Source: Chrysomallon squamiferum (taxonomy: Eukaryota; Animalia; Mollusca). From it: 64,000 nucleotides of DNA. The position numbers and the translations under genes are program-made. Positions 18,135 through 46,270 of the stretch are shown here, piece by piece (the first letter of the stretch is position 1; the number at the start of each line of letters is the position of its first letter). The notes under the pieces were generated by a model, which worked only from the letters and a program-made list of their open reading frames with translations, was not told the DNA's origin and made no database searches. Location of the stretch: positions 22,010,001 to 22,074,000 of the forward strand of contig CM022672.1 in assembly GCA_012295275.1 (NCBI GenBank). Direction: 5' to 3'.

Positions 18135-18638
18135 CTTAGTATGTTAAGGATTATTACTTTAGTAATACATTGCTGGACATTAATTCATTATATTGGCATT
18201 AGTTTAAAAGTCAGAAAAGGTTCATAGTCTAATAACATATTCATTTAAATATACGTATATATAAATATATAGGGCAAGATATGATGGCTAGATACATTTT
18301 TTGGTACAGAAACATATTTATTTCAATAAATTTACTTAAATTTAATAAAAGTTGATAGATTAAAATGGAACTTTGCTTTGATTTCCTCAGGTTATTATAC
18401 ATTAGTGTGTAGTTGTTGCTTTTTTTTTTTTTTTTTTCTCATTTGTTTTTGTATTACTATTTTATTATCATTATTACTCTTTTAAAATTACTGTTTTTAA
18501 TATAGAGTCTGTGAATATTGTTTTGCTGTCATACTTTATTATTGACAAAGATTACTTTTAAACAACTGTTAACAAGACAGTGATATCTTCTTCTGTAGAG
18601 AAGTTAACAATGAATCAGAATGTGTGTGGAAAGGATAC
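18135..18638 (-). other. U12-type (minor spliceosome) GT-AG intron, 504 nt
   Basis: 5'ss GTATCCTTT at 18638; branch TCCTTAAC at 18150-18143, 8 nt before the exon; no polypyrimidine tract. Confidence 0.93.
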
Positions 18639-39909: not shown

Positions 39910-40077
39910 CTTCATCTCTAGAATTAGCATCAATTCTGAAGCAGGCATTGTGGAAAATACCAGAGTAGAACTCTAGGCCAATGATGGCAAAGATGATAAT
40001 TGCAAAAAGCACCAATAAACACACTTGTAACAAAGGAGCCATGGCTCTTATAATGGATTTCAATACTACTTGTAAAC
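39910..40077 (-). CDS. Cav2: Cav2 exon, IS4-S5 linker/IS5 ([18 protein letters not shown]...RIDANSRDE), 168 nt
   Basis: cag acceptor, GTAAGT donor, phase 1 to 1. Confidence 0.95.
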
Positions 40078-41156
40078 CTGAAATCATTAAAAGATATATT
40101 AAATTTTAACATACATACATACATACATTCATACATACATTCATACATAGTTATAAAACAAAATATTTTTAACAATTCAGTAATTGCTAATTAGCATTTT
40201 ACTTCACAATATTTATATTATTTTTTGTTTCACTTTATAGAGAGAATAAATGAATGATAAATGATAAATTACATCAAAATTTCTGAAGAAACAAACAAGA
40301 ATTAAAATTAGTATAGATAAATGAATACTTAGTAATGATATTGAAATACATTTATGTATTCATTATCCATTATTCAGCACTAGTAAATTAATTTATATTA
40401 TGACATAATTATAATAAAATTCATTTACTATTTAAATGAGATAATTATATGATATTCATTTACATTTGAATTATTATTTTTCTACATCTCATCATCATGA
40501 AAAACTAATGGCTGAAGTGTACAAAATAATAAAAATCAAGAAGATTAAAGAGAAAATGATATAAAATTGTAACCTAAATGTAAGTTTAATAATAACCATC
40601 ACCTTATAAATTATCTTGAATATCTGTTATAAATAATAATAATAAAAACAAGGAAAAACAAAAGGGAATATGTATGTGTTATAACCCACAATGAAACTAA
40701 GCTGTGACCACTAATGGAATATGACAAGTTTTAATAACTTCTTACTCACTGAAACTGAATTATGACAAAAGTTTGTTTAAATTTAATAAATTGGTTCATT
40801 AATTTTTAACACAGTGCTTCTTAAATATTTCAATCTGATTAATTCTTGAGTCTACAACAGAAACATTTATTAATCTACAACTGAATTTCAATACTGTTTT
40901 CAGTAATTTTCATCCAATTTTCCATATAGTTTCATTCACCCCCAAAAAGTTTCATTTACCCTATGGTGAACTGTCCACCAGTTTAAAAAAATTAATCATA
41001 GATTTAATCAACTAACTGTCTGTAAAGCTATTATATGTGAAACATATTTGAGTGTTTCTTTCCCATAAAACATATTCCATTAGTGGGATGGGTGCCCCAT
41101 TTGGAACGAGGTAATTCCATTATGGGTTGTACCAAGTGTGTTTAGCTTCTACATAC

Positions 41157-41263
41157 TTGGAATGCCCGAAACCAACTTGAGGGGTCGAAGCACCCTGACT
41201 GCCCGAAGGGTCCGCAGATCAAACGACGAACTCTTGTTTGTGGAATGCACCAAGGTGACGAAC
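41157..41263 (-). CDS. Cav2: Cav2 alternative IS3-S4 exon B ([35 protein letters not shown]), 107 nt, canonical IS4
   Basis: ttgcttag acceptor, GTATGT donor, phase 2 to 1; canonical Cav2 IS4 sequence [21 protein letters not shown]. Confidence 0.93.
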
Positions 41264-43151
41264 CTAAGCAAGAACAAATTTGGGAACCAAGGTAAGGATG
41301 GAATAAGGATTTTGGGTTAAATTGGCTGGGAATAAAGATATATATGAATAAACAGTTCTAATGGTCTTTTTGGTCAAATAGAACTGAAGACAAAAATGTA
41401 TGAAAGGTTGAAATAAATTGGGAATGAAAATACATCTTCTTGATTGAAACTGGAAAAGGAGTTAATTAATAAATAAAAAGGTTGAAAAGAATTAATAATA
41501 ATAAATGTTAAAAAATGATTAGTAAACACAAATAATGTTTTTAATTATTACAATTTATTTTTTCTAAAAACGTTTTAAAGAAATTAGGATGAACATTTTT
41601 GGTTCTTCTTGCTATTCTCTGCAATACAAAACAGTAAAATCATTCGTTTCTAAATCGAAAAGCTTGATTTTTTCTTTCATTTATTTCTTTATCACACATT
41701 AGTAAAATTACTGAACTGAATACAACTGCCTCTCCATGCCTTCCATTATTTTACATAATATTCTGGATAAAAACAAGCTTTAAAGCCCAGCATGGTTGCT
41801 TAACCACTCAACTTAATGACAGTATTGAATACTGACTAATTTTTTATATTGTAAATGCAATATTTTATTATCACAAATTCTACATACACAGTTTAAGAGA
41901 AGCAATTTTTCATATTATTATATATTTTTTTATTTTAAATTCAAAGTAATTAAATTTTAATTCTAATTGATTGATGAATACAGATGTATAAGTGAGATTT
42001 AAAAAATGATAATAAAATAATTTACAAAACATGAAGAGATCTAGAACTGGGGGTTTTTTTGGAGAAAAAAAAGAAAAGAAAGCAAAATGACTGGTTACTT
42101 AAATAGATGATCAATCAAATTTTAAATTGTGCATTTTGAAGTATCATTGAAAAACAACAACAAACTAAATTATTTGCACTGCTTTCTCTTATAAAGCGTT
42201 CCAATAGCAACTGCTAAATATTCATATTTTTAACAATACATCAACATGTTTTAATGTTGCTATGTTTCTATCACAGATTTCTTGTAAAATAAGGTATGAG
42301 AGAGAAAACCTGCTGTTGTTATTCAGAGTTGTAGACATATAATCATTTTATTTGTCAGCCCAAAAACATTAATTAATTTTTGTATACAGAGAAGCACATT
42401 CCACAGACTTTGTAAAACAAGATACAGGACATTGGCTGGAATAATAAATAGACCAATGACCTGATTAGGAGGATTGATCTTGCAACCCATCCAACCACAA
42501 CTGTACATTCTAACTTCATCTACAGCTACTATACAAGATGGATTAAATATTGTGAATAAAGAAATAAAAAAAGATTCAGGACAATAAAAATAGTGATAAT
42601 AATAATAATAATACCAACACCATCTGATCCAAAAAAACAACATTTTTTTTCCTCTTAGATTAAAAATACATTTAAATGCCAATTCAAAAGATCTCATCAT
42701 ATGAAAATAAACAATTGCTGGAATAAAATTTAAAATAAATCAGTTTATTACTGTATAAGAATATTCAAATGTTGGTGTTTTTGTTGTTGTTTGTTTTTTT
42801 TTTTTTTTTTAATTAATGATCAAGTTGATCAAAACTGAATTAAAAAAATAACAGTAATCAATATTAAATATTTCAAATTAATTTTTTTTTTTTTTTTTTA
42901 ACATATAAAAAAATTATTTATAAATGAATATTATGGCAATAATGGTTGAAACAGTTCTTTTGCATTTATTTATTTATTTAATAATATATTTTAAATTCAT
43001 TTTAAATATGACATAAGCAGGTTTCCAGTGCACCAGGATCTATGGATATATTGGAAGGAAATAATGATCAAAGCCCTTATCCCTCAGTTGTTTCTTTTGT
43101 GTGTGATGAATATATAGGATCACTTTTGTAGTTTTTCTCTCTCTAACTCAC

Positions 43152-43243
43152 TTTCTATGCCATTAACCAACTTTAATGGTCTAAGAACCCGAAGTGACCG
43201 TATGGCACCTTGGTCTAAAGATGGAAATATCACCTCTACCAGC
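43152..43243 (-). CDS. Cav2: Cav2 alternative IS3-S4 exon A ([30 protein letters not shown]), 92 nt, mutually exclusive
   Basis: tttgacag acceptor, GTGAGT donor, phase 2 to 1, open frame with S4 motif RVLRPLKLV; absent from the ORF track. Confidence 0.88.
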
Positions 43244-43992
43244 CTGTCAAATGAAACAGTATGCACAACAAATTGAACTCAGTATTAATGTTCCTGGCAC
43301 TGAAACACCTTTGTTTGTTTAACTAACTTAGAAAATATGAATTTTGTATGGCACATAATCTGATGTTTTGTTAAAAGTGTCTGTCTGAAATGAAACAGTA
43401 TGCACAACACACTGAACTCAATATCAAGTGATCTTGGAACCATGACTTCTTTGCTTGTATAATTAATTTAGAAAACATAAGAGGTTATTAAATACTGAAT
43501 AAGATATAAGCCAGTTTTTTTAGTAGCAATGGCTCTGATAATTCGGTTGTTTGTGAATTTTAGTTAACATCACTGTTTGTTTGTCTTTTTTGATTTTTTA
43601 GCTAAATATTATAATTCTTTTGTGGTATTTTTTAATTATTTTTTGGCTGTATTTTTTTATTATTATTATTTTGTTCTTTGTTATGACCTGTATCTTTTCT
43701 ATTTTTGTTATTATTATTATATTATTATTATATTATCATCATCATCATTGTTATTGTAATCATTATCATAATAATTATAGTAGTAGTAATAATATTAATA
43801 ATAATAATAATAATAATTATTATTATTATTATTTTTTTTTTTTTTTTTTTTTATTTACTTTTGTGTATGTGCATATGTCTTTAAATGAACATGATAGTGG
43901 TTTTCAGCCATATTATTTCAAAATTCCAATCTTTATCGAGTGAAATAATAAAACATTAAAGGAACATTTTATCTTTGTTTTCTGATACTTAC

Positions 43993-44132
43993 CCTGTAAC
44001 AACTACTATAAAATCCATTATATTCCAGACGTTGCGTAAGTATGAGCCTTTGTGTAAAACAAACCCTAGAGCTACTATTTTTAGCATGGCTTCTACACAG
44101 AATATCCCCAGGAAGTAAACTTCTGTGTCATC
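43993..44132 (-). CDS. Cav2: Cav2 exon, IS2-IS3 ([47 protein letters not shown]), 140 nt
   Basis: ttttcag acceptor, GTAAGT donor, phase 0 to 2. Confidence 0.95.
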
Positions 44133-46164: not shown

Positions 46165-46270
46165 TAATTGTACAGCTAAAGGTGTCTTGTCTTCCTCGGG
46201 AAGGTGTTCCTCCAAGGCTAGCACTACACAGTTTGCTATGATAGTCAGCAGCACCATGTATTCAAATGGC
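46165..46270 (-). CDS. Cav2: Cav2 exon, IS1 ([35 protein letters not shown]), 106 nt
   Basis: AC acceptor preceded by U12 branch TACCTTAAC; GTAAGT donor at 46164; phase 2 to 0. Confidence 0.93.

Follow-up and report, generated by a model that had tools for sequence, protein, structure and literature searches.

Most invertebrates have a single Cav2 calcium channel gene, and the locus described here touches the question of how, in invertebrates other than flies, one such gene gives rise to several calcium currents, presynaptic as well as somatic. In Drosophila, the cacophony gene offers two alternative exons for segment S4 of repeat I, IS4A and IS4B, which are described as both 99 bp long, with one extra positive residue in IS4A; IS4B is reported to be needed for sustained high-voltage current and active-zone location, while IS4A is sparse (PMC11828482). 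The Aplysia gene ApCav2 is described with the same IS4 exon structure as that found here, an exon 6 of 107 nt and an exon 7 of 168 nt, but the catalogue in that report gives eight alternative sites, none of them in repeat I, and exon 6 is single, preceded by a 6,022-nt intron (PMC10657410). In the accessible text of PMC7939481, the S4 segment of domain I is counted among the most conserved segments of aligned Cav2 channels, and no such variant is mentioned.

The DNA analyzed here, a 64,000-nucleotide stretch from the mollusc Chrysomallon squamiferum (hereafter the window), contains two alternative exons, A and B, for the same segment in the same gene family. As in cacophony, the derived exon comes first and the canonical one second, the two are one basic residue apart, and the canonical exon is the one seen spliced. 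The two pairs also differ: the fly exons are of equal length, with IS4A gaining one basic residue and keeping the outermost S4 charge, R0, whereas the window exons are 92 and 107 nt long and exon A has one basic residue fewer. A-type exons of spiralians, moreover, have Pro, Gly or Ser at the R0 site, a terminal Glu and often an acidic residue in S3.

The gene, which encodes a Cav2 alpha-1 subunit, lies on the minus strand and extends from at least position 46257 to past base 1 of the window. Among the 1,096 matches, collected as relatives of the exon downstream of the pair, the best 120 were examined and are mostly named type A, cacophony or non-L-type. The window protein is ≈82% identical to Batillaria Cav2 over 603 columns, and has Glu in the pore loops of repeats I–III as well as the AID, repeat IV lying beyond the window. 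In a tree made with the alternative exon masked, it was placed among the molluscs with support of 96/96, without resolution to class.

The pair is flanked by a constitutive upstream exon of 140 nt (43993..44132, minus strand), which encodes IS2 to most of IS3 and ends in phase 2, and a constitutive downstream exon of 168 nt (39910..40077, minus strand), which encodes the S4–S5 linker and IS5. Exon A (43152..43243, minus strand; 92 nt, 30 codons), which has homologues elsewhere, encodes the end of IS3, the S3–S4 loop and IS4, with four basic S4 residues and the ending NGIE. Exon B (41157..41263, minus strand; 107 nt, 35 codons) encodes the canonical Cav2 IS3–S4 segment, with five basic residues and the ending SGIP. 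Both exons run from phase 2 to phase 1 and are flanked by AG and GT (for exon A, an AG acceptor and a canonical GTGAGT donor), with the donor at 43993 (phase 2) upstream and the acceptor at 40077 downstream. When an 18-exon model was joined by coordinates, the frame stayed open with A alone (648 aa) or B alone (653 aa), but met a stop at codon 145 when both were included and at codon 124 when neither was. Translation thus confirmed the two exons proposed in an earlier sequence-only reading of this DNA, with their coordinates, phases, charge counts and ends, and the stops bore out its claim that including both or neither shifts the frame. The pair consists of tandem homologous exons with the same phases, only one of which is usable in frame, and with the window protein grouping with molluscs, a mutually exclusive IS3–S4 pair in a lophotrochozoan Cav2, as had been proposed, is supported.

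Four sequencing runs hold the region, three of which are recorded as RNA (X1–X3), all as contigs, of 54–95 million letters. An X2 contig (record 10) joins the upstream exon (43991–44132) directly to exon B (41165–41261), skipping A, and an X1 contig (record 2) covers the whole downstream exon. None of the listed X1–X3 RNA pieces lay on exon A, where the depth bin was 0; these runs are shallow and contigs lose rare forms, and the absence of A from them is neither support for nor refutation of its use. In database gene models, A-type segments are joined to the adjoining exons in Biomphalaria, Schistosoma rodhaini and Pinctada, and on the upstream side only in Littorina.

The A type, 30 residues long, was found in 12 sources: the window, other molluscs, Schistosoma and five animal contigs. 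An A-like segment occurs in two of the best 120 of the 1,096 downstream-exon relatives, P0016 of Biomphalaria and P0040 of Schistosoma rodhaini, and directed searches added the A-type proteins P0139 (Pinctada), P0145 (Littorina), P0143 and P0144. The closest source is P0143, 83% identical to the window exon A, which was also the sole match in a search of 1.84 billion representatives with exon A. An Atlas search returned only generic ion-transport clusters, and of the 209 stretches that a profile built on alignment A1 matched in metagenome contigs, none was confirmed. The five contigs (L001–L005) came from a search with a DNA pattern covering the last part of the A-type S4; this pattern demanded the terminal Glu, not the change at R0. 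In all five, A is 92 nt long with the same phases, and in four (L001, L003, L004 and L005) it is followed by a canonical B exon of 104–107 nt; L002 stops ≈700 nt past A. That four of five unrelated contigs share the pair, its order and its phases is far from chance, L001 and L003–L005 being close kin of each other.

Exon A pN/pS was 0–0.083 in those L001–L005 pairs that have synonymous change (9 of 10), with a Fisher p of 4e-14 for the L002/L005 comparison. By this measure, which was taken among L001–L005 and not in the window lineage, both exons are conserved and under purifying selection in relatives, and exon A is not the dead or neutrally evolving duplicate that the sequence-only reading had considered (pN/pS ≤0.083). 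Between the window and the contigs, exon A pN/pS was 0.27–0.41, which is saturated and uninformative; the intact frame, the splice sites and the 83% identity to P0143 suggest that selection has acted in the window's own lineage as well. L005 was placed outside the molluscs, with spiralian rows, in the exon-masked tree. Conservation of the A type extends over the molluscs, one flatworm and one further spiralian lineage.

A literature search turned up no description of the exon, or of such a pair outside flies, in agreement with the sequence-only reading, which was aware of none in molluscs; most subscription papers fell outside the scope of the search, and an earlier mention is possible. The A segment is already present, uncommented, in automatic database models. 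The exon is real and ancient, and is apparently a spiralian version, not described before, of a type of switch already known.

An A-type exon might reflect a recent local duplication, a separate paralog or an isoform. In a tree of 30 exon peptides (34 columns, with long branches; L004 was omitted), 11 A-type exons formed one side of a branch with support of 100/98, and a sister relationship between window A and window B was rejected (p-AU 0.0005), showing that exon A is not a recent local duplicate. In the exon-masked tree, from which P0140, Mya, Strigamia, Dirofilaria and one Octopus row were omitted, the A-bearing Pinctada protein grouped with the B-bearing oysters (100/99), and a clade of A-bearing proteins, expected if the A type marked a separate paralog family, was rejected (p-AU 0.0001). 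A therefore marks an isoform, not a gene family. In Biomphalaria, all seven cluster members that include IS4 use A (P0016, P0121–P0124, P0128 and P0129). The Biomphalaria protein sits on a long branch, and a clade uniting it with Elysia and Candidula was not rejected (p-AU 0.23); it may represent a second Cav2 gene in which exon A has become fixed. The flatworm Cav2A and Cav2B genes are reported to stem from an independent duplication (PMC11405698), and the pair raises the question of whether duplicated flatworm Cav2 genes split the two exons between them.

Protein matches from arthropods include an alternative segment of their own, in which R0 is retained and the end of S4 has acquired one more basic residue, a chemistry opposite to that of exon A. 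Its length and charge suggest that it is the equivalent of fly IS4A. Three database models from centipede and ant (P0008, P0052 and P0058) wrongly include both IS4 exons, the alternative one first and then the canonical. In the best exon tree, over 34 columns, the alternative exons of arthropods fell within the B exons of the same group on an unstarred branch (81/87), and a joint clade of arthropod alternative and spiralian A exons was not rejected on the same 34 columns (p-AU 0.34). The pair thereby poses the question of a single or a repeated duplication of this exon within protostomes.

A first difference between the two spiralian exons is at the outermost S4 charge. The Gly codon of exon A (43207..43209, minus strand) stands where exon B has Arg, and this site is uncharged in all 12 A sources: Pro in ten, Gly in the window and Ser in P0143. 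It aligns with the first IS4 Arg of Cav2.1 and Cav2.2, named R192 in Cav2.1 (PMC9864995), as the sequence-only reading had said, and with K162 of rabbit Cav1.1. That reading had also called the lost charge R1; since the site aligns with K162, and R1 of Cav1.1 is given as R165 (PMC6380215), the lost charge is instead the extra K/R0, and R1–R4 are intact. An uncharged residue at the R0 site was also seen in P0141 and P0142, which are four-domain channels and were among the rows dropped at exon masking. In 24 stored records, including P0010 and mostly from tephritid flies, the canonical exon has Lys in place of Arg at R0.

A second change is an acidic residue in S3, encoded in the window by a Glu codon (43234..43236, minus strand) ten residues past the conserved IS3 Asp. 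Such an acid was present in five of the 12 A sources (window, Pinctada, Littorina, Biomphalaria and P0144) and in none of 100 B-type and nine arthropod alternative records. Repeats II and IV of these channels carry an acid in the same S3 register, and the site aligns with D1196 of Cav1.1, a residue number counted back from the end of the alignment; a countercharge role for the new Glu is presumed from this position. Because the acid is missing from seven of the 12 A sources, including the closest, P0143, it is not what keeps the exon.

A third change is the terminal Glu codon (43153..43155, minus strand), which replaces Pro at the junction of S4 and the S4–S5 linker. Among the 132 of 145 stored proteins with an IS4 motif (records, many of them fly isoforms, and not independent species), 118 of the 119 in which IS4 ends in Pro keep Arg or Lys at R0, and 12 of the 13 in which it ends in Glu do not. 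The exception, P0140, is a distant, non-Cav2-like four-domain channel with a Lys at R0, which was left out of the A-type count; it indicates that a terminal Glu can occur independently. The loop that the sequence-only reading described as five residues shorter is so relative to exon B only, an A-type exon aligning gap-free with human Cav2.1 and Cav2.2. The idea that the Pro shortens S4 by one turn found no support: in AlphaFold models of domain I, one A-type (Pinctada stretch) and one B-type (Lottia), the starts of the S4 helix differ by no more than one residue, with pLDDT <50 over the A-type S4. In sum, the alignments indicate three things that the sequence-only reading missed: the Gly is a lineage variant at a usually-Pro site, an S3 acid has been added, and the exon type reaches flatworms.

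The consequences for gating can be gauged from mutants at the same positions. In Cav1.1, K162A is reported to speed activation about tenfold, with a time constant of 1.4 ms in place of 15.4 ms, and to leave V1/2 (5.9 vs. 3.2 mV, P = 0.27) and current density as they were (PMC7618026). D1196, in repeat IV, is described as a countercharge that stabilizes R1 and R2 in the activated state, VSD I being without one there (PMC8099428), while the D4 countercharge is reported to be worth only ≈5 mV in Cav1.2 and Cav1.3 (PMC6161609). Exon A resembles the K162A and D1196/exon 29 cases in losing the K162-aligned residue and, in five of 12 sources, adding the D1196-aligned acid, but those are an engineered mutant and a repeat IV cassette in a vertebrate L-type channel, whereas the window has a natural swap in repeat I of a Cav2 channel that makes both changes. 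The pair is a natural, long-conserved test of the K/R0 charge and the S3 countercharge in Cav2 repeat I, and the neurons of Aplysia and Lymnaea, whose Cav2 channels have received much study, would be open to it. The human Cav2.1 R192Q substitution (FHM1) likewise neutralizes the outermost IS4 position, but it is a single disease substitution with context-dependent effects, shifting activation to negative voltages in HEK cells and not in oocytes according to PMC9864995, whereas exon A is a conserved exon form with several co-varying changes. The altered voltage dependence that the sequence-only reading had suggested as a possibility has a parallel in R192Q in HEK cells but not in oocytes or in K162A, and a voltage shift in either direction may occur.

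The explanation that we favor, and consider rather probable, is that of an old either-or pair in molluscan Cav2, in which A, likely the minority form, swaps in a sensor I without K/R0 and would be predicted to alter the speed of opening and perhaps its voltage. Most likely, A would retune voltage sensor I toward faster activation, and toward easier activation where the S3 acid is present. Loss of K/R0 would remove transient ion pairs that slow the movement of S4, as the Cav1.1 mutagenesis suggests, and the new S3 acid may stabilize R1 and R2 in the activated state and favor opening at lower voltage; these predictions are drawn from Cav1.1, whose slow VSD I is special. Sensor I would thereby come to resemble sensors II and IV. 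By analogy with flies, the chief presynaptic form is probably B, with A sparse and cell-type-specific.

The main rival is that a real exon A acts chiefly on modulation or targeting, with the Pro-to-Glu change, on the cytoplasmic side, and the loss of R0 altering inhibition by G proteins, pore coupling or location within the cell, because VSD I is reported both to track pore opening and to be the main target of G-beta-gamma in Cav2.2 (PMC11389781). We regard this as the case only with a fairly low probability. Among those protein matches that were not selected for it, no derived residue is as constant as the terminal Glu, the arthropod alternative exon likewise alters the charge at the junction (Gly to Arg or Lys), fly IS4A is reported to localize differently (PMC11828482), and R192Q reduces G-protein inhibition according to the title of a reference in PMC9864995. 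However, three of the four derived features (R0, the loop and the S3 acid) are extracellular, where mutagenesis of Cav1.1 gives effects on gating. A further alternative is that exon A, functional in other spiralians, could be silent or decaying in the window species, with its acceptor weakened by an upstream duplication and B locked in, which we think unlikely. The RNA contigs show the B junction alone, Gly stands in the window at a site that is Pro in most A sources, the Aplysia work as accessible has only a 107-nt exon at this place (PMC10657410), and the acceptor region is duplicated 140 nt upstream of A. Yet the exon has kept its frame, its exact 92 nt, its canonical ends and its four core charges, it is 83% identical to P0143, which is also non-Pro at R0, and a dead exon in a repeat-rich, AT-rich intron would be expected to decay.

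The omega current that the sequence-only reading had raised, a gating-pore leak through sensor I at rest, fares worst and is in our view very improbable. Neutralized outer S4 charges are reported to open gating pores in some cases (PMC7966529), Gly and Pro are small or helix-breaking, and whether K/R0 allows a lower S4 travel is called undecided in PMC13661669. The same source, however, describes R1–R4, all intact in exon A, as the minimal functional set, and has the hydrophobic constriction crossed by R2 and R3 only, and a Cav1.1 model keeps K0 and R1 above the constriction even in the deepest resting state (PMC8099428). K162A is further reported to leave current density normal in Cav1.1 (PMC7618026), and P0141 and P0142 are also uncharged at the site. 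A leak is thus unlikely because no sealing charge, none of R1–R4, has been lost.

With retuning of sensor I as the favored reading, a broader proposal can be put forward tentatively. Since before the split between molluscs and flatworms, spiralians may have kept a second Cav2 sensor I, by which one splice choice would turn a design of class I/III (K/R0, no S3 acid) into one resembling class II/IV and so yield a fast, low-threshold current from the gene for the presynaptic channel; lineages with duplicated Cav2 (Schistosoma and perhaps Biomphalaria) would then have fixed A in one paralog.

As to how the choice is kept exclusive, the intron between A and B is 1,219–2,054 nt long in five genomes, and this length of 1.2–2.1 kb argues against simple steric exclusion. 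Incompatibility between U2- and U12-type splice sites was rejected as the cause, since both donors are U2-type. Exclusivity is probably maintained by competition between splice sites, together with decay of the frame-shifted products that contain both exons or neither. The duplication of the exon A acceptor region (43244..43478, minus strand) consists of two copies of ≈98 nt, at 43381–43478 and 43244–43338, which are 79% identical with a 140-nt period; the upstream copy ends in AG and is a possible decoy acceptor. An origin of the duplication as a third exon, now decayed, was rejected, since equally high scores arose in 396 of 2,906 random windows and in 333 of 3,000 shuffles.

Downstream of exon B, starting 28 nt past it, two nested long-range helices are predicted (40683..41128, minus strand), pairing 41128–41112 with 40699–40683 (17 bp) and 41086–41071 with 40723–40708 (16 bp). 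Among the 209 non-repeat helices predicted over 46 kb of the gene they rank second and third, and the stem has a z-score of −3.3 for a stretch that was picked after the stem was seen. A docking-site/selector RNA system was considered but found no support, as the best pairing of the stem arms near A reaches −16.3 kcal/mol, against −24.9 kcal/mol for the stem itself. No such stem was among the top five helices of L001 or L005, and the window has no intron sequence in common with L001–L005; in L004, unlike L001 and L005, the strongest helix (25 bp, of unrelated sequence) lies in the same intron, and L003 is cut short. In the predicted fold (41161–41133, minus strand), the exon B donor pairs with the sequence just downstream in a short hairpin.

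Three further features of the gene were seen outside the exon pair. The strongest non-repeat long-range helix (19 bp) joins 13286 with 13012 (minus strand) in an intron of the II–III linker, and a tandem acceptor (NAGNAG) at ≈17445 (minus strand), at the start of the first II–III linker exon, could add or drop one residue. Minor-class introns are known in calcium-channel genes, and the intron at 18135–18638 (minus strand), in the IIS6 region, has U12-type signals, with the donor GTATCCTTT and a branch-like TCCTTAAC directly before the acceptor.
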